Virus record (IMG/VR): IMGVR_UViG_3300048006_000261 | DNA length: 20,000 nt | Source of the DNA: an uncultured virus (IMG/VR IMGVR_UViG_3300048006_000261) | Lineage: Duplodnaviria; Heunggongvirae; Uroviricota; Caudoviricetes | Direction: 5' to 3' (one strand) | In this document: piece by piece, positions 5,445 through 20,000 of the stretch | Numbering within the stretch: position 1 is the first letter of the stretch | Layout: every line of letters starts with the position of its first letter | Program-made: the position numbers and the translations under genes | The notes under the pieces: model-generated | Database searches by the model: none | Told to the model about the DNA's origin: nothing | Seen by the model: only the letters and a program-made list of their open reading frames with translations

Positions 5445-5567
5445 ATGAAGTTTTTTGATTTAAATAACAATGGTAAATATGATTGGTGGGAATATATAAT
5501 ACCTATTATATTGCTACTATGTGTTGAAGTTGTAGCTGAAGTTATAGCTAAATTTTTGATATTTTAG
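5445..5567 (+). CDS. 40-aa membrane microprotein with an EF-hand-like loop
   Basis: ATG at 5445 is 1 nt after the upstream stop. MKFF-DLNNNGKYDWWE-YIIPIILLLCVEVVAEVIAKFLIF. Confidence 0.6.
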   Translation: MKFFDLNNNGKYDWWEYIIPIILLLCVEVVAEVIAKFLIF

Positions 5568-6333
5568 AATACTTAGGAGCGCTTCTAATTAGCTTCTCAT
5601 CTGTCATCCAACCATCATATTTTAACAACTTAGTATCTAAGTCGCTTAACAAATGCCAATTAATATCTCCTCTTCTTTTTAAGAAAGAAACATACTCTTG
5701 TTCTAGATTTTTATCATGAGCAGATTTTTGCATTGCATAACAAGGTAAATGCCAACTATGAGGATCAGCCGCACTTAATCTCCCTGCCTTATCAGATAAT
5801 CCAGGTACACTTACTGTTTTAGCAAAGAAATCAAAACCTATAAGATCAATACTTTTATAGGTTTTTACTTTTTGTAGAAACCATAACAATGTTATAAATC
5901 CAGCGCTAGGTCTTAAATCGTTAGACAGCATATCTTTACCGAACATACTCATTATATCTATAATTTCTTCATCTGTATACATCATTGTGTATAGCATACC
6001 TTGTGGTAGTCTTTTTTCTATTTCCCAATTTTTAAGCTGCAAATTACCTCTACATCTGTTAACTAGTATTTTAGATTTTTTAAATTTACCTTTTTCAAAA
6101 CGGTTTTTATTCTTATACCACTCAGGAGCTCTAAATTGACCAGTAACCCATATATCACATTTCTCGCCTATAGACTTTTCTTGTTCTGGTGTTGCAGATA
6201 TAGCTCTACCAAAGCGAACAATAATATCGTAGGAATCTATAGTCTTACCAAGCTTATGCTTCATAATTTCTACAGAGTTACCTACGAATACTATTCTTTT
6301 GTTTTTTACAAACTGTTGTATATCTTCCACCAC
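5548..6333 (-). CDS. GT29 (sialyltransferase-like) glycosyltransferase
   Basis: Sialylmotif-L-like RIVFVGNS...LGKTIDSYDIIVRF, S-like PSAGFITL...IDLIGFDFF, VS-like HDKNLE. GTG start. Confidence 0.75.
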   Translation of the reverse strand: MVEDIQQFVKNKRIVFVGNSVEIMKHKLGKTIDSYDIIVRFGRAISATPEQEKSIGEKCDIWVTGQFRAPEWYKNKNRFEKGKFKKSKILVNRCRGNLQLKNWEIEKRLPQGMLYTMMYTDEEIIDIMSMFGKDMLSNDLRPSAGFITLLWFLQKVKTYKSIDLIGFDFFAKTVSVPGLSDKAGRLSAADPHSWHLPCYAMQKSAHDKNLEQEYVSFLKRRGDINWHLLSDLDTKLLKYDGWMTDEKLIRSAPKYSKISKI

Positions 6334-6983
6334 TCTTCAGATAATTCAGAATCTTTATACTCATCAAACCAAGGTCCACCTTCTGTGTAATGAATAGCTC
6401 TTGCGTTTGTCTTAGTTATTTCATCAATACCAACTAACATATTATATCTTTTAGGTATTTCACCTATATCATTTTCATTTAAAAATTTAAACTCATGTAG
6501 TTGAGAAGCCGTTGCATTGTCTAGATATTTTTTAGATAATTTTCTATTTAACCTATTACAGTTAAATAACATCAACGAGCTCCAGTTTTTCTTTGGATAA
6601 GACTTGTTGTTAACTCCATTCATTTTGTTAGACTTAACTTCATAGTCATCATGTTTAACTACTGATATTGGTTTATCACCTAGGTATATACTAACTTCTC
6701 TAGGATCTACTCTCCACAAGAAATCGTTATCACAAAACAAAGCATAACCCTTGTAGTTCATTAACATTGGCACATAAAATCTAGTAAAAGAAAACTCAGT
6801 AGATTCTCCTTCTATATCTTCCCTGCCATAAACTCCTATTTCTTTTAATTTAGATTTATCTAAATAAGTTATATTAGCTTCTGGCCAATATTTTAATATT
6901 GAAGCTTTACAAACTTTTGTTGCTTCAGGGTATCTTGAGTCATGCCCTATAAAAATTTTAATACTTCCTGGTTTTTTATTCAT
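6306..6983 (-). CDS. GT-A fold glycosyltransferase (GT8-like / plant CDI-like)
   Basis: IFIGHDSR, STEFSFTRFYVP, DxD motif ALFCDNDFL, YPKKNWSSLMLFNC, HYTEGGPWF. Confidence 0.85.
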   Translation of the reverse strand: MNKKPGSIKIFIGHDSRYPEATKVCKASILKYWPEANITYLDKSKLKEIGVYGREDIEGESTEFSFTRFYVPMLMNYKGYALFCDNDFLWRVDPREVSIYLGDKPISVVKHDDYEVKSNKMNGVNNKSYPKKNWSSLMLFNCNRLNRKLSKKYLDNATASQLHEFKFLNENDIGEIPKRYNMLVGIDEITKTNARAIHYTEGGPWFDEYKDSELSEEWWKIYNSL

Positions 6984-7329
6984 TATTTACTTTTTTACCT
7001 GATGTTTTTCTTATTATATCATCGTGATTAAACTCTGCCCAATATAATTCAAATGCAACTCCAGATTCTTTACCTTCAAACTGATGATACTTACCTGGTT
7101 TAACCATTGTAAAATCACCTGCTTTTAATATGGTTTCGTCAACAAGACCTTGATCGTCTTGCCATACTCTTATTATCATCTCTCCAGACTCTACAAAAAA
7201 ACCGTTCCATTTAAATTTATGTTCGTGCTCTGAGCACTTGTATCCTTTATTAAATTCTATTCGGTGAAACTCTAATACACCGTTCTTGTGTATCATCTCT
7301 GTTGCACCCCATATCTTTCCTGCTTTCAT
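6976..7329 (-). CDS. Cupin-domain protein (sugar isomerase/epimerase-like)
   Basis: CSEHEHKFKWNGFFVESG and LKAGDFTMVKPGKYHQF are cupin motifs 1 and 2. Confidence 0.8.
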   Translation of the reverse strand: MKAGKIWGATEMIHKNGVLEFHRIEFNKGYKCSEHEHKFKWNGFFVESGEMIIRVWQDDQGLVDETILKAGDFTMVKPGKYHQFEGKESGVAFELYWAEFNHDDIIRKTSGKKVNNE

Positions 7330-8144
7330 TTCTTTTGATTATGTTTAAAGTAAGGCTTTCTCCAGTTTTGTGAATTTATTGGGAACCTTCTATTTATTAT
7401 TACTTGTTTTTTTGGTTTTTCTAACACATCGTGTAGATCAATCCATTCGTGCCTCTTGTTATCAGCTCTGTTTGTTATCTTAAACTTTTCTAAACTTTGA
7501 TTATCTTTATTAGTAAAGTGAACACTACATAATATTCTAGGTCCTATAGTTTCTACCTTGTGAAACTGATATTGAGGTATGTAAAGCATATCACCCTCGT
7601 CTAATATAAACTCTTCTAATATTTCTTTAGGCTTGTTAGGTACAAACTCTTTATATATCGTCCATTTAACTTTACCGCTTTGGTGAAACAAAAAATTATC
7701 AGTAGCATCACCGTGAGCAGGAAAGCTTTTAGATCCAGCTTTGGGTGAAACATATACATTAACTTGACCTTTTTTAAAGTACCTTTCAAACTCAAAAACA
7801 ACATCTAACAATTGTTTACTTTCGTATTCAGCAAATGGTATTACAAATGATTTACCTTTTTTCCAAAAATTATGTATACCTGCTTTGGTAAACATAGGTT
7901 GATTTGATTTTTTTCTTTTAACTTTATCAAAACACCATCTTTCATCTTTATCGTTATAATCAAGAACCTGAAGATGAGGTACGTTAGGGTATCTGTTTAT
8001 GTACTTAGTTAAATGACCCCAGTGAAACAAATCTTTAAATTTATTTCTTCTAATAACTAAATGTTTTTTACCCCAGTACTCTTTAAAAAATAAGTCTATT
8101 GGTATTGGATCTAGTATTTCTTTTAATGTTATTTCTTTTTTCAT
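7326..8144 (-). CDS. JmjC / Cupin_4 2-oxoglutarate-Fe(II) oxygenase (YcfD/RoxA-NO66-like core)
   Basis: FFKEYWGKKHLVIRR, NVYVSP...FPAHGD (HxD), GKVKW, LDEGDMLYIP..FH (distal His). Confidence 0.85.
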   Translation of the reverse strand: MKKEITLKEILDPIPIDLFFKEYWGKKHLVIRRNKFKDLFHWGHLTKYINRYPNVPHLQVLDYNDKDERWCFDKVKRKKSNQPMFTKAGIHNFWKKGKSFVIPFAEYESKQLLDVVFEFERYFKKGQVNVYVSPKAGSKSFPAHGDATDNFLFHQSGKVKWTIYKEFVPNKPKEILEEFILDEGDMLYIPQYQFHKVETIGPRILCSVHFTNKDNQSLEKFKITNRADNKRHEWIDLHDVLEKPKKQVIINRRFPINSQNWRKPYFKHNQKK

Positions 8145-8147
8145 ATT

Positions 8148-9869
8148 TTATCCGTCGCAGCTTAAACAGTTAGGGTCTATCGCTTGTTTAGCTATATCAC
8201 CTCTAAGAACTGATTCAGTTCTCATGTAATATAAAGTTTTAATTCCTTTTTTCCATGCATCTAAATGAACCTTATTTATAAATTTAGGTTCTGCTTCTGA
8301 TGGAAAAGCTAAGTTCAAACTAACAGATTGATCTATGTATTGTTGTCTTATTCCTGCTTGATTAATTAGTTCAAGTTGATTTATTTCTTTGAAAGTTTTG
8401 AAGACTTCTTTGAGTGGTATATCGTGATCGCCCAATGTAATTTTCTCTAATGCTTTTACGCCCTGCACCGAGCCCCCGTCCTTTAATATTTGGTCCCATA
8501 TTTTTTTATTGTTTAAATTGTTTTCTTCTAATACTTTTTCAAGAGTTGGATTTTTACGTATGAAAGTGCCTTTCGCAGACTGGTCTGTAAAAACATTAGC
8601 AGCCCAAGGCTCAATTCCAGGACTAATATTCCCAGATAACTTACTGTTACTAACAGTAGGAGCAATAGCTCTAAGATGAGTGTTCCTAAATCCTGTGCCA
8701 ACGCACCATAGTGGTTCGTTAAACGCTTCAGCCAAAGCCATACTAGCTCTTTCCGATTCAATTTTAATTTGACTAAAAATTCTTCTTGTTTCATATTGTG
8801 ATAATAAACCTTCAAAAGGTAATCCTTTTTGTTGTAAGTAAGTATGCCATCCAACTACGCCTAAACCAAGTGCTCTACCTTTTTCAGCAGATCTTACTGA
8901 GTTTTCAAACCCTCTTCTATTTTTTGCTTTCTGTATAAACTCTTCTAATACACCATCTAAAAACCATATACTATCGTATATTAAATTACTGTTTTTCCAC
9001 TCATGATATTTAGCTAGATTTAAACTAGATAAACAACAAATAAAACTATGGTTTTCATCTGTATGTAATGTAATTTCACTACATATATTAGTCATATGTA
9101 CTTTTAAAGCATTATCTTTATAAGCAGAAGGATTATTCTTATTAACGTTACCTTTAAACATTATATAAGGCTCTCCTGTAGCTTTACGCTTCTGTAATAG
9201 TTTACCCCATTTACGTCTAGAAACTTTATCTCCATCTCTAAGCTTTCTCATAAACTTATCACCAACTACAGCACATTGGTGTAGGTTAAGTGATTGTCTA
9301 TTTACATCTCCTTTAGGTTCTCTTATTTCTAACCAGTCTTCAAAATCAGCATGTTCAATATTTATATTAACAGAGGCAGCACCTCTTCTAACTGACCCTT
9401 GGTTTGTAGCTAGTATTGTAGAGTCATATATCTTACAAAAAGGCACAACACCATCTGATGTACCATTGCCTGTTATATTAGCACCTGCAGGTCTAATTTG
9501 ATTTATACCTATACCAACACCTCCACCGTGCTTGGCTAGTAACATCATTTCTAAATTCTTTTGGCCTATATCGATTATGCTATCTGCAACATCAATACCA
9601 AAACAACTTATTGGAAAACCTTTATCAGTACCAGTGTTACTAAGCACAGGGCTAGCAAGACAAAGCCAACCTTTCCAGATGTAATCAAAAAAGATGTCCT
9701 CCATTTCTTTTTTCTGTAATCTATTCGCAACTGTTTTAGCAACTCTTCTGTACGCTTGTCTTGGTGTTTCATCTTCTAATAAATATCCTCCTTGTATTGT
9801 TTTTTTATATACGTCGGACTCTGCCCAACTTGGGTAATCTATACCCTTTTTCCATCTATTGCTCCACAT
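8148..9869 (-). CDS. nrdA: Ribonucleotide reductase class I alpha subunit, compact, no ATP cone
   Basis: SPVLSN, PISCF, GGGVG, TNICSEI, CCLSS, IAPTVSNS, TLYY and C-terminal CLSC. Confidence 0.95.
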   Translation of the reverse strand: MWSNRWKKGIDYPSWAESDVYKKTIQGGYLLEDETPRQAYRRVAKTVANRLQKKEMEDIFFDYIWKGWLCLASPVLSNTGTDKGFPISCFGIDVADSIIDIGQKNLEMMLLAKHGGGVGIGINQIRPAGANITGNGTSDGVVPFCKIYDSTILATNQGSVRRGAASVNINIEHADFEDWLEIREPKGDVNRQSLNLHQCAVVGDKFMRKLRDGDKVSRRKWGKLLQKRKATGEPYIMFKGNVNKNNPSAYKDNALKVHMTNICSEITLHTDENHSFICCLSSLNLAKYHEWKNSNLIYDSIWFLDGVLEEFIQKAKNRRGFENSVRSAEKGRALGLGVVGWHTYLQQKGLPFEGLLSQYETRRIFSQIKIESERASMALAEAFNEPLWCVGTGFRNTHLRAIAPTVSNSKLSGNISPGIEPWAANVFTDQSAKGTFIRKNPTLEKVLEENNLNNKKIWDQILKDGGSVQGVKALEKITLGDHDIPLKEVFKTFKEINQLELINQAGIRQQYIDQSVSLNLAFPSEAEPKFINKVHLDAWKKGIKTLYYMRTESVLRGDIAKQAIDPNCLSCDG

Positions 9870-9870
9870 A

Positions 9871-10122
9871 TTATGTTATTAAGTGTTTTATCCAAGCAAA
9901 TAAACCATTAAGGTTTAATGCTACTAAATTCCATTGTTTTCTTGATCCTGTCTGTACCATAACACAAATAAAACCTATTATATATAACCAAGGTTCTAAT
10001 GTCCATTGTGCGGCTACTAGAAAACCGGCACCCATATATCCAATACGGGTTGCCATCCTTTCTAATACTGTTAATTGTCTTTTTCTTTCGACAAGAAACT
10101 TTTTAAATTTATAACTTACCAT
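9871..10122 (-). CDS. Small multi-TM membrane protein between nrdB and nrdA
   Basis: Fills the gap with tight coupling to both genes. About three short hydrophobic segments. Confidence 0.65.
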   Translation of the reverse strand: MVSYKFKKFLVERKRQLTVLERMATRIGYMGAGFLVAAQWTLEPWLYIIGFICVMVQTGSRKQWNLVALNLNGLFAWIKHLIT

Positions 10123-11084
10123 ACATCTTCAAAATCTTCTCCTTCATTCGCCTTACTATAGTCAGTCGACCTAATCGCGAAAAAATCAGTGTGGGTATGA
10201 CCCCCAGTAAGATGATAGAACCAATCCAAATTACCCGCTGCTTTTTCGTCATATGAGAAGTACGATCCGAGATCCACGTAACCAAGTTCTTGTAATTTTT
10301 CATTAGTTCTTTTTCTTATAAATTGTTTTAGGTCATAAGACTTTATACCATCTATATCACCCATTTCAAACATCTTTTCTATATACTTTTCTTCTAATTC
10401 AACCATTATCTTAGCTGCATCTACAATATCTTCTCTACAGTCTTCTAATAAATCTTTATCTTCTTCGCACATGTGTCTAAACAATTGACAACCCATACGG
10501 CTGTGTAAAGATTCATCTCTAACTGACCATTTCATTTGTTGGCCAATACCTTTAAGTAAATTACGTAGCTGAAAGCTATACAAAACGGCAAAAGCAGAGT
10601 ATAAAGAAACTCCTTCTGCGAAAGCAGAGAAAACAGCCAGTGACTTTGCGATACCTCTTTTATCGTCGCCATCATATGCAACGAGGTTATCAAAACGCTC
10701 AGCCGTAGCTGGTTCATGAAGAAACGCTTCATAATCTTCTAGTTTTAATGTTTCGTTTAAATAACTATATGCTACAGCATGTACAGTTTCCTGTGAGCCA
10801 AACATCATAGCCATTTGTTGTATCTCGTGCTTTGGAAACCACGATACTACTTTCTGAGTCCAGTAATCACTTACTGCACATTCAGTCTGAGCAAAACCTA
10901 GTAAGATGTTTCCTACTAGGTGTTTCTCTTTTGCTGTTAAAGACTCGTTCCAGTCCTTAACATCTCCACTCATAGGTATTTCAGTATGTAACCAAAATGC
11001 TTGAGCTTGTTTTAACCAACCTTCAGTATAGTACTCAGGGTAGTCAAATGGTTTATATGCAATACGTTTGTCGAATAATCCCAT
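10116..11084 (-). CDS. nrdB: Ribonucleotide reductase class I beta subunit
   Basis: FWLHTE, AQTE, ETVHAVAY, AEGVSLYSAF, RDESLH, DFFAIRSTDY. Confidence 0.95.
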   Translation of the reverse strand: MGLFDKRIAYKPFDYPEYYTEGWLKQAQAFWLHTEIPMSGDVKDWNESLTAKEKHLVGNILLGFAQTECAVSDYWTQKVVSWFPKHEIQQMAMMFGSQETVHAVAYSYLNETLKLEDYEAFLHEPATAERFDNLVAYDGDDKRGIAKSLAVFSAFAEGVSLYSAFAVLYSFQLRNLLKGIGQQMKWSVRDESLHSRMGCQLFRHMCEEDKDLLEDCREDIVDAAKIMVELEEKYIEKMFEMGDIDGIKSYDLKQFIRKRTNEKLQELGYVDLGSYFSYDEKAAGNLDWFYHLTGGHTHTDFFAIRSTDYSKANEGEDFEDVW

Positions 11085-11085
11085 G

Positions 11086-11226
11086 TTAATAATATAAAGT
11101 TAAACAAATATCAAATACGCCCACGTAAATTACGTGATCTATCTTATTACCATCTGGGTACTGTCTGTATCCAAATAATATTCCATTAAATAAGCCAAAG
11201 CTTAATTCCCAATTACTTTCTTCCAT
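11086..11226 (-). CDS. 46-aa hypothetical protein (not in ORF track)
   Basis: MEESNWELSFGLFNGILFGYRQYPDGNKIDHVIYVGVFDICLTLYY*. Fills the gap, and its stop lies 1 nt before the nrdB ATG. Confidence 0.65.
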   Translation of the reverse strand: MEESNWELSFGLFNGILFGYRQYPDGNKIDHVIYVGVFDICLTLYY

Positions 11227-11671
11227 CTATTTTTTTTATTAGTTCTACGGTCATATCACATTCTTTTTGGTTTTGAGGTTTATACAAAGTAAAAGGTCCT
11301 ACTCTATCATTTGCTATCAGCCTTTTAAATAATTTCCATCTCATTGGAAAAGACTCATTAGCTCTACCCTTTGTTTCAATTATAAAACCTTTACCTATAA
11401 AATCAGGTGTGTATTTTATATTTAAAATCTTTTTATTACCTCTATTTTTATATTCACCTTTACCATTGCCGCATCTTTCGTATGCTTCAAAAGGGAAATC
11501 AAAACCCTCTACTAGTTCAAATGTTTGTCCTTCGTAAAGAGCTTTAATGTTCGCTTTTTTTAAAGCCATGTACATATAACGTTCTAGTCCTGACGCAAAA
11601 GTAATACCGTCGTAAGTTATTTTCTTTGACTGTACAGGACCTTTTTTTCTTTTATAAAACTTCTTTTTCAT
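11213..11671 (-). CDS. T7 endonuclease I-like PD-(D/E)xK nuclease / resolvase
   Basis: FASGLE, KYTPDF, IIETKG. Confidence 0.8.
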   Translation of the reverse strand: MKKKFYKRKKGPVQSKKITYDGITFASGLERYMYMALKKANIKALYEGQTFELVEGFDFPFEAYERCGNGKGEYKNRGNKKILNIKYTPDFIGKGFIIETKGRANESFPMRWKLFKRLIANDRVGPFTLYKPQNQKECDMTVELIKKIDGRK

Positions 11672-11939
11672 TGACGTCTATATTAGTTACATCTGCTGTG
11701 AATCTTTTATAGGCTACTTCTTCTATTTCATCGTTTAAACATCTTCTAGCTGCTTGTATGTACAGTATTGCATCCATTAATTCTTCTTGTACATCAATAA
11801 GAAATCTATTAAGATCTTTTTCTTCACCCTCAATCTCTTGCATCATTGTAGCGCCATATTTCTTTTGGCCTATTAAACTACGTTCGTCCATCTTTTTTAA
11901 GACTTGTTGAACTATTTTATCTTCTGTTTTAATCCTCAT
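11652..11939 (-). CDS. Small all-alpha protein, possible NTP-pyrophosphatase (MazG-superfamily)-like
   Basis: RSLIGQKKYG...VQEELMDAILY contains an EExxD acidic helix motif. Confidence 0.5.
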   Translation of the reverse strand: MRIKTEDKIVQQVLKKMDERSLIGQKKYGATMMQEIEGEEKDLNRFLIDVQEELMDAILYIQAARRCLNDEIEEVAYKRFTADVTNIDVNEKEVL

Positions 11940-12735
11940 CTTTCACAAATGTTCCGTTAATCATCTTGCCTGTTCTCTTGTTTATCACGTCGTATGCTGT
12001 TGCTATACACCTTTCAATTTTAACACCTTCTAAATGTGCTAGATTTGTGAGTACAACAACCATATCACCAATAGCATCTATAACTTCTGGCTTATCCTTC
12101 TTTAATAAAGCCTTTGCAAGTTCTCCAGCTTCTTCTTGTAGTTTAACATATTGTGTGTGTGAATTACCCTGTTGATATAATCCTCTTATTAATGCCCATT
12201 TTCTAATTTTATCAAATATACTTGATTTGCTAGTGGCTGATTCATTGTGTAACATTTCATGAACAACAGCGTGTTCATATTCAATAGGGTTTTTTTGAAA
12301 GTTTGACATAGCTTTATTATATACGTAGCTTCTGTCATTGTTAAACATAGAGGTTTTAACGTTTTGCATGATCCAATTAATTAGATCTAATGTTAGTTTA
12401 AAATCCCCGTGTTCTGTTTCCCATGCCATACCAATGTTATCCATTAGTTGTCCTTTAAGTTTATTGACTGGACAAGGAAAAGTCGTGGTTTGTTCGGTCA
12501 CGTTTATCTTCATATTTTTATTTGGTTTAAGGTTTCTATAAGGTACTAGATCTACTCTGTACCCATACTCTTTTTGTCTCTCAAGCTCTAAACAAGATAT
12601 ATAATCTATATCCTCTGAGCTTTCTAATATTTCATACTCATCAGGTGAATATCCTTGTTGAACTGTGACCCGGTTATTAAGATCACAGGTAACGCCAATT
12701 TTTTTACCTGGTATATGATATAAATAATATGTCAT
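11929..12735 (-). CDS. Multi-domain protein: GIY-YIG-like N-terminus, unknown middle domain, C-terminal MazG-like pyrophosphatase
   Basis: N-terminus YYLYHIPGKKIGVTCDLNNR. C-terminus KLQEEAGELAKA...VIDAIGDMVVVL...YDVINKRTGKMINGTFVK. Confidence 0.75.
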   Translation of the reverse strand: MTYYLYHIPGKKIGVTCDLNNRVTVQQGYSPDEYEILESSEDIDYISCLELERQKEYGYRVDLVPYRNLKPNKNMKINVTEQTTTFPCPVNKLKGQLMDNIGMAWETEHGDFKLTLDLINWIMQNVKTSMFNNDRSYVYNKAMSNFQKNPIEYEHAVVHEMLHNESATSKSSIFDKIRKWALIRGLYQQGNSHTQYVKLQEEAGELAKALLKKDKPEVIDAIGDMVVVLTNLAHLEGVKIERCIATAYDVINKRTGKMINGTFVKDED

Positions 12736-13373
12736 AATTTGTCGTTATATATATGCATGTTATGTGCGTGATGGTAATACCATCCGACGTCAATAGACAG
12801 TCTCTCTGCAATCATTTTTTGTAATGATGAAAATTGATATTGATCGTTACAGAAACCGTACCAGATGTCATTAGAACGCATATAAACAGACATATTTAGT
12901 TTATTGTCTATTATTGTAAATTGTATTGCATAGGTACAAGGTGTATCGTTACGATACTTATCAAACTCTTTGCAATCATATATACTAATAGCCGCGTGTC
13001 TAGTATTGGGGTTTTCTCTTAATTTACCAACTACATAATCTATTTGATTATTACGTTGCCATTGATAACCGTAGTTACTATTTACTTCTCTATCGCTATT
13101 AGCCATCTTTTCCCATATAGGTGGAACTTTACCATACAGTTCACCTAACTTGTCTATACTAGGATCGCCTGATAAATACCATTGCCATTCGGCTTCTGCA
13201 TATTCATGAGACCATTTTCTGAATTTGTTTTTGATATGATTGTCTAATGGATCTTCTATTGTGAAGCCTACATTAAACAAAGCTTTAGTATTATCAAAAT
13301 CTACACCTTCAGTAATTAAGTCGTGCATTACACAGTTGAAAGCCTCGTTTGCATTTAAAAATTTATTTCGCAT
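12732..13373 (-). CDS. Thymidylate-synthase-fold enzyme, T4 gp42-like dCMP hydroxymethylase/methylase
   Basis: Likely start is ATG 13373 (MRNKFL, 213 aa). Motifs EWQWY, PPIWEKMA..EVNSNYG, DTPCT, MRSNDIWYGFCND, HNMHIY. Asp at the pyrimidine specificity position. Confidence 0.8.
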   Translation of the reverse strand: MRNKFLNANEAFNCVMHDLITEGVDFDNTKALFNVGFTIEDPLDNHIKNKFRKWSHEYAEAEWQWYLSGDPSIDKLGELYGKVPPIWEKMANSDREVNSNYGYQWQRNNQIDYVVGKLRENPNTRHAAISIYDCKEFDKYRNDTPCTYAIQFTIIDNKLNMSVYMRSNDIWYGFCNDQYQFSSLQKMIAERLSIDVGWYYHHAHNMHIYNDKL

Positions 13374-13608
13374 ATTTTTCGTAATAATATTTATAATAGT
13401 TAAATATAACTTCCCATAGTTCTCTGGAATCATAGTATTTAGGTGATCTGTTGACCTTACCATTTATCTGTATATCTATATACCAACTCATAAAGTTTTC
13501 TTTACAAAATGGAGATATGTATATTCCATTGTTTATACACCAATGATAGCATTTAAATTCGTAGCTATCATATGAGTATGCGGGTTGTTTTTGTTTTTTC
13601 TTTCTCAT
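13363..13608 (-). CDS. Hypothetical aromatic-rich protein (81 aa)
   Basis: ATG at 13608 overlaps the primase stop (ATGA). Fills the gap to the next gene. Confidence 0.65.
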   Translation of the reverse strand: MRKKKQKQPAYSYDSYEFKCYHWCINNGIYISPFCKENFMSWYIDIQINGKVNRSPKYYDSRELWEVIFNYYKYYYEKYAK

Positions 13609-15323
13609 GCTTCCCAAGGCATTGGCTCAGTTTCATCTACAGCATTTAACTGTGGTATAAATGAACCAGACCTGTGTTCCCATGTAAAAAACGATTCAGC
13701 GCCATTTTCACCTAGATTTTGAAACTTACATTTTAATACTTTTACTTTAGTATTTTTAGCTTCATAATCTCTATGTACTAACAGACCGTGATAACTAGCA
13801 TCATACCATTCACCACCACCTTTTATGTTGTACATTGTAGGTTCTTCTATTTTACCATCTTGGCCTTTATACATTTTAGTTGGATGTGCTACTATAAACG
13901 TTAAAACATCATACTTTTTACAAAAGGCTTCTATCTTTGCTAGATAGTCCATAGTATATCTGTTCACATCATCTGAAACTGCATTTGTATCTCTAACCTT
14001 ATTAAACGGATCAATAACTAAACATTTAATACCTTTACGTTTAACTAGCTCAGCACCTTTACGTAATACTGATTCTAAGCTATACTTATCCATATCTATA
14101 AAATAATAGTTATCATTTACATGATCTGAAACTTCTTTCCATTTGCTATTACCTATATCACCAGGCGCAGGCATATCACCCCAAGTCTTACGCATAAGCT
14201 TGTGGGCGTGTAAATAAATAGGTGCGTTTTCAGGACTAGCAAAAGCTGTCTTCCAACCATACTGTTTATTATAACCAACTACCATCTGATCAACGAAGTC
14301 AGACTTTCCGCTACTAGGTATCCCAGTAACAGTGATGAACTGCCCAGTATAAGTACTAAAAACATCGTCAAAATTAGACAGCCCAACTTGGAAGCCAGGT
14401 TTGAAACCATTTTTAACAAAATCTTTAAGTTCATTTTCTATATTTTTTAGTGTTGTTACATTTTCTAAAGGTACTGGTTGCGCCGTGTGTATAGCAGAAC
14501 GTAAAGCATCTACTCCGTGTTTTAGTAAATACTCGTTAGAATCTTTGCAGTCTACAAAATCTACTATAAAACAATTTTCAGCACCTAACCTACGTATAAA
14601 CTCTTGTTTAAGCATTTGGCCAGGTTCATCAGCATCAACCGCTAGTATTATCTTTTCTTTGTCATCAAAATAATCTATACAGTTATCAAGATAGTCTAAA
14701 TTATTGTGGTTTAACGTTGCACCGTTTGGTACTGATATTACGTTAGGCACACCTGCCTCGTGTAGGGCTAGAACGTCCATTTCGCCTTCAACTATAACAC
14801 AACTGTTATGACCTACAATACTGTTAATATTGTAAAATACTTTTTCAGCTCCTTTGTATAGTTTAAAGTTTTTACGTCCATCTCTATATTTTACATTGAT
14901 AAGTTGATTACCTATGTAATAGTTAAATTTTATTGTATTCTCAGTCTTACCTGTCTGTGGCATAAACTCAGGACCCTCGCTGACATCTAAGTCAATGAGA
15001 GTCTTCTGAGATATACCTCGAGACTTAAACCAATCAACAACTTTACTACTTGGTACCGTAAGCTCTTGAGCTACAGGGCGAACGTATTCACGATCGCTAG
15101 TACCTTTACGTTGATACGTGTGTAGTTGAAAAGTTGAATCACAGTTGTGACAAGTACCGAGACCACGTTCCCAATCATAAGAAGCACATTTAAGCTTTTT
15201 GTTTTTAGGCTTTCTAGTGTGTGAGCACAAAGGACAAGTCCCTTGCGTCTTACCAACTTCTAGCTTGTGTTGATTGAACTCATCAATCTTAAACCCATTG
15301 ATCTCTATTTCTTCTACTTGCAT
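13605..15323 (-). CDS. T7 gp4/Twinkle-like primase-helicase
   Basis: Zn finger CPLC...CHNC, TOPRIM IVEGEMD and AVDADEPG, Walker A GIPSSGKS, Walker B LVIDPF, VAHP. Confidence 0.95.
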   Translation of the reverse strand: MQVEEIEINGFKIDEFNQHKLEVGKTQGTCPLCSHTRKPKNKKLKCASYDWERGLGTCHNCDSTFQLHTYQRKGTSDREYVRPVAQELTVPSSKVVDWFKSRGISQKTLIDLDVSEGPEFMPQTGKTENTIKFNYYIGNQLINVKYRDGRKNFKLYKGAEKVFYNINSIVGHNSCVIVEGEMDVLALHEAGVPNVISVPNGATLNHNNLDYLDNCIDYFDDKEKIILAVDADEPGQMLKQEFIRRLGAENCFIVDFVDCKDSNEYLLKHGVDALRSAIHTAQPVPLENVTTLKNIENELKDFVKNGFKPGFQVGLSNFDDVFSTYTGQFITVTGIPSSGKSDFVDQMVVGYNKQYGWKTAFASPENAPIYLHAHKLMRKTWGDMPAPGDIGNSKWKEVSDHVNDNYYFIDMDKYSLESVLRKGAELVKRKGIKCLVIDPFNKVRDTNAVSDDVNRYTMDYLAKIEAFCKKYDVLTFIVAHPTKMYKGQDGKIEEPTMYNIKGGGEWYDASYHGLLVHRDYEAKNTKVKVLKCKFQNLGENGAESFFTWEHRSGSFIPQLNAVDETEPMPWEA

Positions 15324-15332
15324 TTAATTTAA

Positions 15333-15425
15333 TTAAAATTCTTCTTCGTCTCTACAATCTGGACATATGTCGCAGAACAAATACTCGTCCTGCGTCATAC
15401 CTTGTCCACATATTTCACATTCCAT
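15333..15425 (-). CDS. 30-aa Cys-rich zinc-finger-like microprotein (not in ORF track)
   Basis: MECEICGQGMTQDEYLFCDICPDCRDEEEF*. TAATG overlap with the SSB stop. Confidence 0.65.
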   Translation of the reverse strand: MECEICGQGMTQDEYLFCDICPDCRDEEEF

Positions 15426-15736
15426 TAAAATGGTAGATCATCTGCAACAGCCGCAGACGGAGCTGGAGCTTGTTGTTGTTGATCATCTCTTGGTGCAACC
15501 GCGACGTTATCGCCGTTCGTCCATACTACCTTTACATTACCTAAGTAAGTCTTAGCAGTTTTAGCATCTCTTTCCTCTTTTGACTGTTGAACAGACACAG
15601 GACCTTGATTGCCAAACTGATCTAACTCATCGTTTAATGTAATAGTTATCGGTAAGTATTTACCTTTCTTACCTATAATAATTTTATCCTTAGGTATAGC
15701 GTTAAGGTTTATACTTGTTGCTATTATACTTGCCAT
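15425..15736 (-). CDS. Putative single-stranded DNA-binding protein
   Basis: Likely start is ATG 15736 (MASIIATSINL). Gln/Ala/Pro linker and acidic DDLPF tail. Lies between the recombination genes and primase. Confidence 0.7.
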   Translation of the reverse strand: MASIIATSINLNAIPKDKIIIGKKGKYLPITITLNDELDQFGNQGPVSVQQSKEERDAKTAKTYLGNVKVVWTNGDNVAVAPRDDQQQQAPAPSAAVADDLPF

Positions 15737-15737
15737 A

Positions 15738-15920
15738 TTATGCGTATTGATTAATTTGATTAAACATTCTCGCCATCTGATCCTTAGTAGCACCAGTGGT
15801 TCTTCGTAGATTATCTACTGCTTTAACATGTGTTTGGTTCGTGTAAAAATTGTTTACACTAGTTTCCATACCTGTTACTGAACAAACTCTAGTTTGCGTT
15901 TTTTTAGTTCTTCTTGCCAT
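15738..15920 (-). CDS. Small basic hypothetical protein
   Basis: Fills the gap, has an A/T-rich leader, and stops 1 nt before the SSB start. Confidence 0.65.
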   Translation of the reverse strand: MARRTKKTQTRVCSVTGMETSVNNFYTNQTHVKAVDNLRRTTGATKDQMARMFNQINQYA

Positions 15921-15930
15921 AATTATTATA

Positions 15931-16674
15931 TTAAAGTGTTTTGCTTATGAAATATTGTTTAGGATCGAAACCCTCGGATTGGTAGAACAGCTCATAAGCT
16001 TTTTCTGCTCTATCAACCTTGTCTTTACCTGAAGCATAAAACTCAGGTGAGCAATCAAATATTCCTATTTGATGTGTTGTTTTGTCTATTACTATAAATA
16101 TCATGTCGTAGCCAAATAACTTTCTGTATATGTAAGCCTGTGAATCGTAATTGTATTTAGAAGCTGACCATCTAAATTTTTGTATATCAGCTGTGGTTTT
16201 TAAATCAACCACTAGTTTTTCTGCATGATTTACTATATCAGCTTTACCTTTCCAAACATAATCATTTACTTTACCTACACCTGGTACTTCGTAATCAATT
16301 TTTACTTTGTTATCAGTACCTCTTATTAAGTCTCTACAAACCTCATTGTTTAGCATTTTGTCTGTCATTAACTCTATGCCATCAACCTCATGTTGTAATA
16401 AACACAACTCGCCACCCGACATTTCTTTATACATCTTAGTATTTCTACTTGATGATTCTACAATCTTATACTTTTTAAGCTTGTCTGGCTCAAGTATACA
16501 TGTGTGAAAGTAACCACCTACAAGAAATGCAGAGCTAGGTTTACTTGGCTTTTTAAACGCTAGTGGGTTATTAAGCAAAGTACCTATATCTGAGTTGCTC
16601 AAGTATTGCCTTCCAAAGTCGCCATAATAATGTTCATCATTTTCTAACTTTTTCAGGATCTCTTTTTTGTTCAT
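15931..16674 (-). CDS. RecE/ExoVIII-like PD-(D/E)xK exonuclease (DUF3799-like)
   Basis: YLSNSD, GGYFHTCILEP, KGKADIV, VVDLKTT, YDSQAYIY. Confidence 0.85.
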   Translation of the reverse strand: MNKKEILKKLENDEHYYGDFGRQYLSNSDIGTLLNNPLAFKKPSKPSSAFLVGGYFHTCILEPDKLKKYKIVESSSRNTKMYKEMSGGELCLLQHEVDGIELMTDKMLNNEVCRDLIRGTDNKVKIDYEVPGVGKVNDYVWKGKADIVNHAEKLVVDLKTTADIQKFRWSASKYNYDSQAYIYRKLFGYDMIFIVIDKTTHQIGIFDCSPEFYASGKDKVDRAEKAYELFYQSEGFDPKQYFISKTL

Positions 16675-16675
16675 A

Positions 16676-17233
16676 CTATAGTGTTAATAATTCTTTCTCA
16701 ATTAATTCATCGAGAGCATATTTATTTTTAATAGTTTCTACTTTACCACCTGCTTTTACATAATCTATAGCTTTTTGATAAGCTGGATCTTTCTTTGAGG
16801 TTAAAGTTGGTTTTTTAGGTACGAATTTACCTGTTGCTTTTTTTCCATGATCATTTGTTGCGTCGCTGTCAGCAGTGTCATCAATTAAGAATAAATTACC
16901 AAGTGCGTATTTCTTAGCATAAGAAGACGCTGAGCCAAACTGCTGAGGTACGTTCATACCTTTTTGGTTTAAGTCTACACCTACTATAGCTGTTGCGTGT
17001 ATAGCATCTTTACCATCACTAATTGTAGCGGTAGATTCTAGCACAGGCATTTCGTACGCGTTGTTAAGTTGTTCGTTAATTGTAACCGTCACACCTAGTT
17101 CTAATAAGAAAGGTTTGGTTGCTTCGAGAATGTCTTCGGCTGATCTGAAGTTGTATTTACCGAAGGAATTAAATCTACTTTTTTTCGATTTAAATTTAGT
17201 CTGGACAGTAGCCAGTTTTTCGTTAATAGTCAT
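16676..17233 (-). CDS. ERF-family ssDNA annealing protein
   Basis: YNFRSAEDIL, QQFGSASSYAKKYALGNLFLIDD..DSDA. Confidence 0.9.
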   Translation of the reverse strand: MTINEKLATVQTKFKSKKSRFNSFGKYNFRSAEDILEATKPFLLELGVTVTINEQLNNAYEMPVLESTATISDGKDAIHATAIVGVDLNQKGMNVPQQFGSASSYAKKYALGNLFLIDDTADSDATNDHGKKATGKFVPKKPTLTSKKDPAYQKAIDYVKAGGKVETIKNKYALDELIEKELLTL

Positions 17234-17307
17234 ATTTGATTTAATTTTAGTCTATATATATAATTACACATTAGCGGGTGTTTGTTAAACTATATCCGCT
17301 CTATAAA
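17234..17307 (-). promoter_or_regulatory. Only sizeable intergenic region; candidate promoter/leader with an imperfect inverted repeat
   Basis: AGCGG (17273-17277) pairs with CCGCT (17296-17300). An AT-rich GTAATTATATATATAG follows on the minus strand, upstream of erf. Confidence 0.4.
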
Positions 17308-18090
17308 CTACAGATAATCAAGCACTTGCGAGTGATCTACATTATCTATTAATTTATCTACAGCTTGTTTTTTAAGCTGTGAAACTCTTACATAAGATGA
17401 ACTGCCTTCAATGTTTAATAGTTTTGCAATTTCTTTTGCTGAGTGTTTATCGCTATGTAATCCATAGCTTAGCGTTAATACTTGATATTCTTTTTCTGTT
17501 AAATATTTTTTTAATATACTATCAAGATATATATTTAGCATGTTCATATTATAAGGTTCTGATTTATCTGGTATTTGATAAACCATATCTTCGTTATCAG
17601 CTGGTTTGTCATCTATACTTAAAAATATAGAATTAAAAAACATAGCAACCATCTTTTTATCTTTACCAAAGTTACGTCTTATTTCGTTAAGTTTATGCTC
17701 AGGTATTCTCATGTCACCACGATTAATATCTATAGCTCTTCTTATTTGACCTCTTATTCTTTTTGATAAAAAAGATTTTATAGTTTTTTCTTGATCAGGA
17801 GATTCTTCTAATAAATTTAAATCTAACCTATCTACTGCTTTTGTTAAACCAGAACTACCTTCTTGTATTAAATCCATTATAGTCATAACACCAGAAGCTT
17901 GTTGAGTTGTTGAAAACTTTCTCGATATATTTTCTACTAATGGTAGAAACATAGTTATCGTTTGTTCTCTGCTTAAATTGGTAAATATGTTATTTTCTGC
18001 TTGTTCTCTAAGCTCTTGTGGAATTGCTCTGATCGACTCAACGACGTCATTTTTCCACCTAACATAATTTACTACGTTATATTTCTTCAT
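17308..18090 (-). CDS. Phage-encoded sigma-70 family factor
   Basis: Region 2 DLIQEGSSGLTKAVDR...RIRGQIRRAI...MRIPEH. Region 4 LSYGL...KEIAKLL...RVSQLKKQAVDKL. Confidence 0.9.
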   Translation of the reverse strand: MKKYNVVNYVRWKNDVVESIRAIPQELREQAENNIFTNLSREQTITMFLPLVENISRKFSTTQQASGVMTIMDLIQEGSSGLTKAVDRLDLNLLEESPDQEKTIKSFLSKRIRGQIRRAIDINRGDMRIPEHKLNEIRRNFGKDKKMVAMFFNSIFLSIDDKPADNEDMVYQIPDKSEPYNMNMLNIYLDSILKKYLTEKEYQVLTLSYGLHSDKHSAKEIAKLLNIEGSSSYVRVSQLKKQAVDKLIDNVDHSQVLDYL

Positions 18091-18703
18091 TTAATATCAT
18101 TTTTTCTTTTTTTAATTGTTTATTTAAATTTCTGTAAATAGTTCTTGTAGAACAATCAAGTAAACCTGCTACTCTGCCCCATGTTATTTTCTTACTTGTA
18201 TCATTTAAATCTAACATGCATTGGTAAATAGATTCTTCATCAACACGTGATGATCTACCTATTAATTTTCCTACAATACTTAGTTTTTGACTCAAGTCTA
18301 AACCTGAGTACATATTAAATACTACTTTACGCATTTTATTAGCTGGTGGTTCACCACCTATTGTCATAACGTTTTCTATCATCTCATCTAATATTCTGCT
18401 TTTAATAAAAAATGTAACAAAACCATTTTCTTTATCAGCTATAAATCTAAACATGTGTTCCATTAATAATGGATTACCATGTGGTATATCTTCATTGAGA
18501 TAATATAAAACAAGCATGTGCCACTTTAATGATTTATACGTAGTTATCTTAGCCTTACTATTAAATAAGTGATAACATTGATATGTACCATTAGCGTAGT
18601 ATTTATATTGTTTGGTTTCAATAGTAGGTATATCAGTATCAGGATCTTTCCTATATACGATGCGTCTATCATTTAACCATTTTATATTTCTTTCGTATGA
18701 CAT
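18077..18703 (-). CDS. Hypothetical protein with C-terminal helix-turn-helix
   Basis: ITWGRVAGLLDCSTRTIYRNL. Confidence 0.7.
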   Translation of the reverse strand: MSYERNIKWLNDRRIVYRKDPDTDIPTIETKQYKYYANGTYQCYHLFNSKAKITTYKSLKWHMLVLYYLNEDIPHGNPLLMEHMFRFIADKENGFVTFFIKSRILDEMIENVMTIGGEPPANKMRKVVFNMYSGLDLSQKLSIVGKLIGRSSRVDEESIYQCMLDLNDTSKKITWGRVAGLLDCSTRTIYRNLNKQLKKEKMILNEEI

Positions 18704-18717
18704 TTGCCTATTACTAT

Positions 18718-19056
18718 TTATCTCTTAATCTCTATTGTCACATTTTCCCATTTACCACCTTTTAATTTTTTAGAAACTAAAAAATCTATACGTGAGGTCC
18801 ATCTTTTATTCATTCTGTCTTGCACGGTCCATACTCCATCGAGATCACCCGCACCTGTTACTATTACTTTTACGCCAAAAGTATAACCTTCAGCTTCTAA
18901 ATCCCTGCTTACAGCTATCCACCTATGTGATTGTGGATCTTCCATATTAATATGTTTACCACTAGCTGTTATATGTGGAGTGCTATCTGTTTGTTCAGGA
19001 GTAGCATGGTAGATTGTCGCTGTAACCAACAACATCTTCAATGTATTTAGTATCAT
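18718..19056 (-). CDS. 3D-domain (MltA/RlpA-like barrel) protein
   Basis: VTATIY...QTDSTPHITASG, IAVSRDL, VQDRM, RIDFL (three conserved Asp). Start may be 19035. Confidence 0.8.
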   Translation of the reverse strand: MILNTLKMLLVTATIYHATPEQTDSTPHITASGKHINMEDPQSHRWIAVSRDLEAEGYTFGVKVIVTGAGDLDGVWTVQDRMNKRWTSRIDFLVSKKLKGGKWENVTIEIKR

Positions 19057-19516
19057 ATAATGTTTCTTTGTTATGCGCTATGTTTTTCTTTTCGTGTACG
19101 TAGTACAGCCAGTACGCGTGTATAGCACTTTCACGCTTGTATTCATCAGGCATACACTGTGGAGGTTCTGAAAAACCTGTATGCAGTATACCATCAGGAT
19201 ACTTAGCTAATGGCTCTTTACATTTAGTAATTGATAAATGTACTTTGCCATAACGTTTAGTATACTCATCACCTAATGCTAGCATGTGATAATACAACCA
19301 CAAATAATTACTAGCACTTTGTCTCGCCCACCTTGTAGATGGGTGATTGACATGAGCTTTTTTGTAAGGTACCCACTCAGTTTCATAGTCAAGACCATGA
19401 CAATGATGAGCCGTACAAAGCATTTGAGCTGATTCTAAGATCATTTTAACCACATGCTTATTATATTGTAGCTGTGCGGCTTTTACTGGATCCTTATCTA
19501 AATAAAATATATTCAT
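18995..19516 (-). CDS. Pyrimidine-dimer DNA glycosylase-like protein (DenV-related)
   Basis: MNIFYLD.DP..AA...KHVVKMILESAQML, HVNHP..RW, EYTKRYGKVH, PQCMPDEYK. Confidence 0.8.
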   Translation of the reverse strand: MNIFYLDKDPVKAAQLQYNKHVVKMILESAQMLCTAHHCHGLDYETEWVPYKKAHVNHPSTRWARQSASNYLWLYYHMLALGDEYTKRYGKVHLSITKCKEPLAKYPDGILHTGFSEPPQCMPDEYKRESAIHAYWLYYVHEKKNIAHNKETLYDTKYIEDVVGYSDNLPCYS

Positions 19517-19623
19517 CTATATCGTTTGTTATCTAATCTGTTATAATGTTTGTCTAATAAGAGGTTTGCTACCTCTTCTGATATTAAGTTGTCGTTGTAT
19601 AATTGCCATATTAGTTTGCTCAT
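19513..19623 (-). CDS. 36-aa hypothetical microprotein (not in ORF track)
   Basis: MSKLIWQLYNDNLISEEVANLLLDKHYNRLDNKRYR*. ATGA overlaps at both ends. Confidence 0.65.
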   Translation of the reverse strand: MSKLIWQLYNDNLISEEVANLLLDKHYNRLDNKRYR

Positions 19624-19715
19624 GATATTATCATTTTTAACTTGTGTACAAAGTCGTATATATTCATATGACCTTCTTCAAACTCCCATATTAAATCTTT
19701 AATTTTTTCATTCAT
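19620..19715 (-). CDS. 31-aa hypothetical microprotein
   Basis: MNEKIKDLIWEFEEGHMNIYDFVHKLKMIIS*. Start overlaps the ligase end, and its stop overlaps the next ATG. Confidence 0.55.
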   Translation of the reverse strand: MNEKIKDLIWEFEEGHMNIYDFVHKLKMIIS

Positions 19716-20000
19716 AATTTCTGATTGCTTTGAATAACGGGTGTCTGTATGAACCTGCATTTGTACGTTGAAAGTAAGTAAAGGTAGCACGTTTACCGAT
19801 ATAATCACCAATGTTATCGAGTATATCGGCTAAGTCTTTGTAGTTGTAGCCTTTGCCCGGAGGACAACCAAACTTATTACCGTCATCATCTTGCATTAAG
19901 AATTTGCCGATAGTACCTTCGCGCTTACCTTTACCTGTTTCATAACCTATGATAGTTGCTTCGGTGTCGCTGAAGTCTTTGAACTTCATAAGATCATAAG
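19708..20000 (-). CDS. ATP-dependent DNA ligase, C-terminal OB domain (5'-truncated)
   Basis: Frame is open to the window edge: YDLMKFKDF (motif V), GKGKREG..G, TFTYFQRT..GSYRHPLF (motif VI). Confidence 0.85.
   Translation of the reverse strand, partial: YDLMKFKDFSDTEATIIGYETGKGKREGTIGKFLMQDDDGNKFGCPPGKGYNYKDLADILDNIGDYIGKRATFTYFQRTNAGSYRHPLFKAIRNYE

Follow-up and report, generated by a model that had tools for sequence, protein, structure and literature searches.

A 20,000-nucleotide stretch of the uncultured Caudoviricetes record IMGVR_UViG_3300048006_000261 in IMG/VR (the window, meaning here the whole stretch) carries a gene for a 213-residue protein of the thymidylate synthase (TS) fold, raising the question of whether this protein makes thymidylate, as its automated names imply, or acts on a cytosine nucleotide. 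An earlier note, made from the sequence alone, had favoured the latter, pointing to an Asp specific for deoxycytidine monophosphate (dCMP) in place of the residue of a true TS and to a likeness to gp42 of phage T4. The sequence tests described below all favour an enzyme acting on C5 of a cytosine nucleotide, and hydroxymethylation is the favoured one among the note's options of a hydroxymethyl, methyl or related product. The gene probably encodes a homodimeric, folate-dependent dCMP C5-hydroxymethylase, by which the phage DNA would come to contain 5-hydroxymethylcytosine (5hmC) or a derivative of it.

Fold and active-site residues of the 213-residue protein

The protein matched the TS family PF00303 in Pfam at 99.5 bits (cut-off 24.3; E 2.3e-28), which is not a chance resemblance, and its matches in PHROGs were to four families, all named thymidylate synthase, the name that JGI also gives to its homologues. 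None of the eight NCBIfam TS equivalog models scored above its cut-off, the best reaching 88.1 bits against 327, so the expectation that automated pipelines would label the gene thyA holds for the JGI and PHROG names and fails for the equivalog models. TIGR03283, a model of short archaeal TS of about 200 residues, aligned with the protein over positions 39-196 of 201. In a sequence search of the PDB, the leading matches were MilA, the mildiomycin CMP 5-hydroxymethylase (4.6e-20), and T4 gp42 (9e-20), whereas ThyA proteins matched more weakly (best 2.8e-16; E. coli ThyA 3.6e-14). A longer open reading frame (ORF) starting at ATG 13463 exists, and 213 residues is the usual length among 120 listed homologues. 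Numbering of the protein coincides with that of E. coli ThyA across residues 143 to 209, and the TS equivalents E62, Y101, C146, R166, H207 and Y209 are present, the first two corresponding to Glu58 and Tyr94 of the ThyA reference. The translated protein contains the string RSNDIWYGFCND as well as PPIWEKMANSDREVNSNYG, which begins at residue 84, and HMMER aligned the PKIW...EINSNYG segment of gp42 with the corresponding segment of the query, as the earlier note had proposed. Also as described there, translation stops soon after HIY: the C-terminus reads HIYNDKL*, leaving 4 residues after Tyr209 in the alignment compared with 55 in E. coli ThyA and 28 in gp42. The profile match to the gene runs beyond its stop codon into a frame that encodes a conserved protein with a MazG domain (the MazG fusion), and the overrun is for that reason regarded as spill-over.

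From an alignment of 56 rows, AlphaFold2 produced a model of the protein with pLDDT 96.6 and pTM 0.92. In a Foldseek search of the PDB, the model matched TS-family structures with probability 1.00. The best match was MilA (TMq 0.91, rmsd 1.7); the flavin monooxygenase 9iqc scored 0.86, ThyA ~0.80-0.82 and the T4 dCMP hydroxymethylase 0.77-0.78 (at an identity of ~24-25%). The homodimer model scored 0.89 against 0.00 for the best control, a result that may only reflect likeness to solved TS dimers; 20 of 30 proteins with structures of one-chain pairs attained this mark, as did 1 of 23 with single-chain structures. The homodimer runs showed at least 98% contact agreement and a partner pLDDT of at least 94, with residues 125-126 in the interface. 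TS dimers are known from solved structures, and TS is an obligate homodimer in which each chain lends Arg126' to the active site of its partner.

For comparison, the query was aligned with characterised enzymes whose sequences came from public records of phages and of E. coli. The fetched sequences read RSCDVFLGLPF-N in E. coli ThyA and RSNDVVFGFRN-D in T4 gp42, exactly as the earlier note had given them, and a script read the codons of the diagnostic Asp (GAT, 12843-12845) and the catalytic Cys (TGT, 12936-12938) at the very positions it gave. At positions 143, 147, 169 and 177, the query has Asp, Thr, Asp and Asp, and T4 gp42 has the same four residues. The corresponding residues are Leu, His, Asp and Asn in E. 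coli ThyA and RB69 td; Asn, Pro, Asp and Asp in the Xp12 dCMP methylase; Asp, Asn, Asp and Asn in the deoxyuridine monophosphate (dUMP) hydroxymethylases of SPO1, M6, ViI and phiW-14; and Glu, Thr, Asn and Asp in the 5-hydroxy-dCMP synthase gp48 of RB69. Cys146, Arg166, Ser167 and Gly173 are likewise common to the query and gp42, and the sequence around 166-169 is RSND in the query as opposed to RSQN in RB69 gp48. The dUMP hydroxymethylases have a one-residue insertion before 177, whereas the query has D177 and T147 and no insertion. In the alignment, the query also carries the deoxy-type residues Ser167 and Arg125.

Published rules connect these positions with function. N177D selects dCMP; L143D/E, which replaces the water-excluding Leu, is characteristic of enzymes with hydroxymethyl products, and D169N of flavin-dependent 5-hydroxy-dCMP synthases; MilA has Asp at both 177 and 143 (PMC13326640). 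In viromes, contigs with modified cytosine differed from unmodified ones most strongly at positions 177 and 147, a TS domain and the PRA-PH domain PF01503 co-occur on the modified contigs, and ThyA N177D is cited as becoming a dCMP methylase (PMC8670742). Ribose is selected by Ala176 and Lys133 in MilA, and deoxyribose by Ser and Arg (PMC5175136). Applied to the query, these rules predict 5-hydroxymethyl-dCMP as the product: with Asp177 the base would be cytosine, with Asp143 the product would carry a hydroxymethyl and not a methyl group, and with Ser167 and Arg125 the sugar would be deoxyribose and not ribose. Since Asp169 is kept, the protein is not expected to be a flavin-dependent 5-hydroxy-dCMP synthase. 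At the residue level, therefore, the query has the signature of the gp42-type dCMP hydroxymethylases and lacks the defining residues of five other classes, namely ThyA (EC 2.1.1.45), dUMP hydroxymethylases (such as SPO1 gp29), 5-hydroxy-dCMP synthases (such as RB69 gp48 and DLP3 gp80), MilA-type and Xp12-type enzymes.

Conservation, phylogeny and relatives of the short enzyme

To describe conservation, two sets were used, the 120 closest database homologues listed and 119 of 150 listed representatives of 50%-identity clusters, being those of at least 190 residues. Among the close homologues, Asp177, Thr147, Cys146 and Asp143 were each present in 120/120 and Asp169 in 119/120, and 107 of the 120 end exactly four residues after Tyr209. 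The cluster representatives have Asp177 and Asp169 without exception (119/119 each), Ser167 in 117/119, Asp143 in 115/119 and Thr147 in 111/119. Gly173 and the Trp equivalent to ThyA W80 are also kept. At least 7,991 database proteins among 8,000 scored candidates matched at E <= 1e-10, many of them from Tara samples, and 401 IMG/VR loci carry a homologue. The family is thus very large in marine metagenomes.

A tree of 64 rows was built with IQ-TREE from the query, 5 close homologues, 45 representatives (the first 45 of at least 200 residues, the others being left out) and 13 reference rows. The query and gp32 of Bacteroides phage BF486P2 fall together in a well-supported 25-row clade (support 99/94) in which nearly all proteins have 204-230 residues. 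A 100/99 branch separates the radiation that holds this clade from ThyA, RB69 td and Xp12. The same radiation, which comprises many clades and whose deeper order is not resolved, also includes the dUMP hydroxymethylases, RB69 gp48 and, on a long branch, T4 gp42, all of them outside the query's clade. The earlier note's likeness to gp42 therefore stands for the active-site signature, but close kinship is not supported by the tree, which places the query in a separate clade of short proteins.

Comparison with known systems shows how far each likeness extends. T4 gp42 (PDB 1b49, 1b5d, 6a9a; EC 2.1.2.8) resembles the query in fold, in D143, C146, T147, RSND, G173 and D177, in a common PxIW...NSNYG segment and in having a C-terminus shorter than that of ThyA. 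It differs in its low identity and structural score, in its longer tail, in having Arg at position 127 where the query has His, and in not being its sister in the tree. MilA (PDB 5jnh, 5b6d), the best match in both sequence and structure, has Asp177 and Asp143 like the query; unlike the query, which has Ser167, Arg125 and no extension, it has Ala176, Lys133 and a large C-terminal extension. Enterococcus phages VPE25 and VFW and Lactobacillus phage ATCCB encode TS-like proteins that are 35-38% identical to the query and share D143, T147, D169 and D177, but these are 269-281 residues long (35% identity and 281 residues in VPE25 and VFW) and form a separate, supported clade of their own. Their genes adjoin a T4-like beta-glucosyltransferase gene, and in VPE25 also a dUTPase gene, whereas the window has neither. 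The DNA of VPE25 and VFW is resistant to bisulfite and to MspI, PvuRts1I cleaves it, and indirect assays indicate a modified cytosine in VPE25 DNA, probably glucosylated hydroxymethylcytosine (PMC4999554). The VPE25 and VFW proteins are the nearest experimentally anchored relatives of the query.

The closest named homologue is BF486P2 gp32 (46.5% identity), which shares the clade and signature of the query and has a tail of 17 residues after Tyr209; its label as a dCMP 5-hydroxymethyltransferase is annotation only. Phages of the BF486P2 type, which are gut phages, differ from the window in having a dUTPase and, besides the first Asp177 enzyme, another paralogue with Asp177 that is divergent. 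In the BF486P2 record, the two paralogues lie at 9156-9917 and 11989-12669 with the dUTPase between them, both are annotated as dCMP hydroxymethylase, and the second forms a very long branch in the tree. Asp177 TS homologues paired with PRA-PH/MazG on cytosine-modified virome contigs have already been published (PMC8670742), and a catalogue of IMG/VR contigs with TS-associated glycosyltransferases exists (bioRxiv 10.1101/2023.12.21.572611). For this marine group, literature searches on hydroxymethylases gave no specific result.

Moreover, the position that the gene occupies, upstream of the MazG fusion, was surveyed in a second set of IMG/VR loci, selected with the primase-helicase encoded upstream. 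Three of the 80 loci had too little downstream DNA, leaving 77. The slot was occupied by the short type in 69 and by a full-length ThyA-like protein in 8, and the same MazG fusion followed in all 77; an enzyme with Asn177 was found in none of the 77. The RSND...D motif was present in 68 of the 69 short-type loci. The remaining one (L199) has, around 5968-6489, a TS-type ORF of 205 residues in which no RS.D...D motif was found; this copy may have decayed or suffered a frameshift. The 8 ThyA-like proteins (in L164, L166, L167, L170, L173, L185, L187 and L191) are 255-291 residues long from the first Met, are 36-43% identical to E. coli ThyA, and have Leu143, His or Tyr147, Asp169, Asp177 and an intact C-terminal tail. 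They are predicted to be dCMP methylases. Like the query, they and the Xp12 dCMP methyltransferase have Asp177. Unlike the query, these enzymes are full-length with a tail, have Leu (Asn in Xp12) at 143 and His, Tyr or Pro at 147, and in the tree ThyA and Xp12 are on the other side of the 100/99 branch. Only Asp177 enzymes, in two very different builds, occupy the slot; this gives independent support for a cytosine-directed function, and the pattern fits a MazG partner serving either chemistry.

The MazG fusion and the gene neighbourhood

The start ATG of the MazG fusion overlaps the TGA stop of the TS-fold gene in an ATGA. Residues 196-254 of the 268-residue fusion matched PF01503 (5.3e-7) and PF03819 (4.3e-5), and the protein matched phrog_1992 and phrog_715, 'MazG-like pyrophosphatase'. 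PF01503, the domain of the published cytosine-modified contigs, is thus also the domain of the gene directly downstream in the window. The N-terminal domain is highly conserved over residues 1-145, an alignment of 20 rows showing dozens of invariant positions; it matched no Pfam family, its fold could not be recognised, and AlphaFold2 modelled residues 1-85 with pLDDT below 50. A GIY-YIG nuclease similar to T4 EndoII was considered for this domain and rejected, the only Pfam match being MUG113 (E 0.16) and hhalign against I-TevI giving a probability of 0.3%. An apparent TS-MazG fusion of 423 residues (P0275) proved to be a tandem repeat of the N-terminal domain with no TS. The next gene, a conserved 95-residue ORF, was rejected as a second MazG-like protein, since it had no credible Pfam match and Atlas returned only viral hypothetical clusters.

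Table 1 Coordinates of the features discussed in the window
Feature	Position	Strand	Basis or remark
TS-fold gene, 213 residues, predicted dCMP C5-hydroxymethylase (short form)	12732..13373	-	PF00303, PDB matches, AlphaFold2, Foldseek
Asp143 codon	12945..12947	-	aligns with ThyA Leu143, 3 residues before the catalytic Cys
Cys146-Thr147 codons	12933..12938	-	catalytic Cys (TGT), then Thr where ThyA has His
Asp169 codon	12867..12869	-	Asn in flavin-dependent 5-hydroxy-dCMP synthases
Asp177 codon (GAT)	12843..12845	-	aligns with ThyA Asn177, base-selecting position
MazG fusion, 268 residues: N-terminal domain (~145 residues) and C-terminal MazG / PRA-PH	11929..12735	-	PF01503, PF03819, PHROGs
Conserved ORF, 95 residues, next cassette gene	11652..11939	-	PHROGs of unknown function only
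Ribonucleotide reductase large and small subunits and 83-residue ORF	8148..11084	-	PF02867, PF00317, PF00268
Four-gene accessory island	5548..8144	-	Pfam; GT8 an Atlas lead only
JmjC protein	7326-8144	-	
Cupin	6976-7329	-	
GT8-like glycosyltransferase	6306-6983	-	Atlas lead: PF01501 on 10-14% of nearest-cluster members
GT29-like protein	5548-6333	-	PF00777, 26.8 bits, residues 14-70

Downstream linkage was counted in 80 IMG/VR loci found with the TS-fold protein, among those with enough DNA. The MazG fusion followed the TS-fold gene in 72/72 relatives and the 95-residue ORF in 70/71, and the large subunit of ribonucleotide reductase (RNR) lay downstream in 60/60; the RNR genes with the 83-residue ORF had counts of 60/60 and 65/66. 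On the minus strand of the window, the module runs from ligase, sigma factor, Erf, exonuclease, primase-helicase and an 84-residue ORF to the TS-fold gene, followed by the MazG fusion, the 95-residue ORF, a DUF1064 protein, both RNR subunits and then JmjC, cupin and glycosyltransferase-like genes. By its gene content, this neighbourhood is read as the replication and nucleotide module of a lytic phage. In five named phages related by terminase, the TS-fold gene and the full-length MazG fusion were each found in 0/5, and one of them has a stand-alone MazG domain.

The four-gene island with JmjC, cupin and glycosyltransferase-like genes is present in just 14-17 of 57-60 relatives. In a search that had no positive control, it was absent from all 8 records with the methylase-type enzyme; completeness reaches 90% in just 3 of these records. 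PDB sequence searches with its two glycosyltransferase-like proteins gave nothing useful. The island may glycosylate 5hmC in DNA or something unrelated; it was not adopted as a DNA 5hmC glycosylation module, its distribution being patchy and its absence from the methylase-type records too weak to decide. Elsewhere in the window, an ORF at 18995-19516 on the minus strand matched phrog_624 'DNA binding protein' at 1.2e-49 and a pyrimidine-dimer glycosylase model at 22.1 bits, below the cut-off of 23. It is overlapped by an ORF at 18718-19056 (minus strand) that matches a PHROG of unknown function.

The window has a G+C content of 33%, and megablast of positions 5500-20000 against the phage collection gave no match. 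An IMG/VR genome of 65,531 bp rated 100% complete (G002) is collinear with it at 85-97% nucleotide identity. The terminase of G002 is nearest to those of Flavobacterium 'elemo' phages and of Cellulophaga and Tenacibaculum phages, and the primase-helicase of the window is nearest to that of Cellulophaga phage phi10:1, so that the host is probably a member of marine Flavobacteriia. The phage itself is an uncultured, marine, podovirus-like phage of ~65 kb. G002 also carries GroEL and GroES homologues, a 2157-residue virion protein with a crAss 'muzzle' C-terminal domain, and ORFs of 614, 709, 880 and 2330 residues that match no family.

Proposed pathway, competing explanations and significance

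In the proposed mechanism, Cys146 would attack C6 of dCMP, and methylene-tetrahydrofolate would give a one-carbon unit to C5. The active site would be open, with Asp143 in place of the water-excluding Leu of ThyA. Because the site would be open and acidic at 143, water could add to the exocyclic methylene, with no hydride transfer, to yield 5-hydroxymethyl-dCMP. In T4, the dCTPase gp56 feeds gp42 and keeps plain cytosine out of the DNA. The MazG fusion most likely hydrolyses dCTP (perhaps dUTP) to the monophosphate, which would feed the hydroxymethylase and exclude plain cytosine as gp56 does for gp42; in both systems, a pyrophosphatase is a plausible partner. The enzyme most likely works as gp42 does with its dCTPase, and the phage would then incorporate 5hmC or a derivative into its DNA.

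Several observations weigh against this interpretation. The functional rules are correlations drawn from other clades, and the rule for position 143 is not clean, as Xp12 has Asn there and not a bulky hydrophobic residue. A literature search found no characterised enzyme in the 25-row clade of short proteins. The phosphate-binding Arg21 of ThyA aligns with Val24 of the query (alignment read by eye), and Arg127, also phosphate-binding in ThyA, is His in 120/120 close homologues; phosphate binding would thus differ from that of ThyA. Nothing of the C-terminal segment remains, and MilA became insoluble when its C-terminus was truncated by engineering (PMC5175136). On the side of the pathway, the MazG domain, for which dCTP is a putative substrate, had no sequence match in T4, SPO1, Xp12, RB69 or BF486P2 in a search with no positive control. 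Pfam and PHROG searches of G002 recognised no deoxynucleoside monophosphate (dNMP) kinase, dCMP deaminase or DNA polymerase, and a motif scan for P-loop kinases gave a credible hit only in the primase-helicase. Unlike T4, G002 has no recognised gp1-type kinase and no recognised beta-glucosyltransferase homologue. Conversion of 5-hydroxymethyl-dCMP to the triphosphate could therefore fall to host enzymes or to an unrecognised phage protein.

The competing explanations differ mainly in how they read the same few residues. Asp177 taken alone would equally suit a dCMP C5-methyltransferase that produces 5-methyl-dCMP and 5-methylcytosine DNA, for Xp12 has D177, N177D makes ThyA a dCMP methylase (PMC8670742), and some relatives hold a ThyA-like D177 enzyme in the very same slot. 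However, position 143 is Asp in the query, as opposed to Leu in TS and the ThyA-like alternates and Asn in Xp12; the C-terminal tail with which ThyA closes its active site for hydride transfer is missing; and the 100/99 branch sets the query apart from ThyA and Xp12. Two very different enzymes alternating in one slot, moreover, suggest two different products, and a methylase is considered quite unlikely. A flavin-dependent 5-hydroxy-dCMP synthase such as RB69 gp48 or PDB 9iqc would share the fold (Foldseek TMq to 9iqc as given above), Asp177, an acidic residue at 143 and the short C-terminus, but it is very improbable: the D169N marker is absent throughout both conservation sets (save for one protein of the first without Asp169), Gly173 and the Trp equivalent to W80 are kept, and RB69 gp48 has N169 and no G173 (PMC13326640).

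An ordinary TS or a dUMP hydroxymethylase, supplying nucleotides next to RNR, can draw on the location of the gene in a nucleotide-metabolism module, on the existence of short archaeal TS models of ~200 residues (TIGR03283), and on the finding that this is the sole TS-fold gene in 5/5 complete relatives, with ThyX in 0/5. Against it, Asp replaces Asn177 in every homologue examined, L143 and H147 are missing, the NCBIfam TS equivalogs remain far below their cut-offs, and dUMP hydroxymethylases have N147 and N177. This explanation ranks as low as the flavin enzyme. The product could also arise from another cytosine nucleotide, such as CMP as with MilA or a di- or triphosphate, or not be destined for phage DNA at all. 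The standing of MilA as the best match in sequence and structure, the loss of two phosphate-binding Arg of ThyA and the lack of a recognised dNMP kinase are in keeping with this. Ser167 and Arg125, however, are deoxy-type, whereas MilA and BcmA have Ala and Lys (PMC5175136), and the gene is set in the replication and RNR module of a lytic phage, not in an antibiotic gene cluster. Such an activity appears unlikely, if a little less so than methylation. Hydroxymethylation of dCMP for phage DNA thus remains the preferred explanation.

A further idea concerns the slot itself. The slot between primase-helicase and MazG fusion could be a swappable one, occupied in some phages by a minimal hydroxymethylase and in others by a ThyA-like methylase of full length, and the N-terminal domain of the MazG fusion may supply a step that is otherwise lacking, for example phosphorylation or channelling of the 5-substituted dCMP, for which it is a candidate because no dNMP kinase is recognisable. 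The minimal pathway would then consist of two genes, one of them with a new nucleotide-handling domain. This combined proposal is speculative and unlikely.

Replacement of cytosine by a modified base is a textbook strategy, known from T4 and from virome surveys such as PMC8670742, and a well-known phage defence. What sets this case apart is an extremely short enzyme that is abundant in the ocean, and a slot in which predicted hydroxymethylase and methylase types alternate. No new principle is involved; the finding is of value in that it corrects the annotation of genes named thymidylate synthase and offers biochemists a compact enzyme to study. If the prediction is right, the protein shows how far the TS fold can be trimmed, ending four residues past Tyr209, and still work. 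A very common group of ocean phages would then replace cytosine with 5hmC or a derivative, which would affect both the recovery of these phages by modification-sensitive library methods and the set of host restriction systems that they escape.

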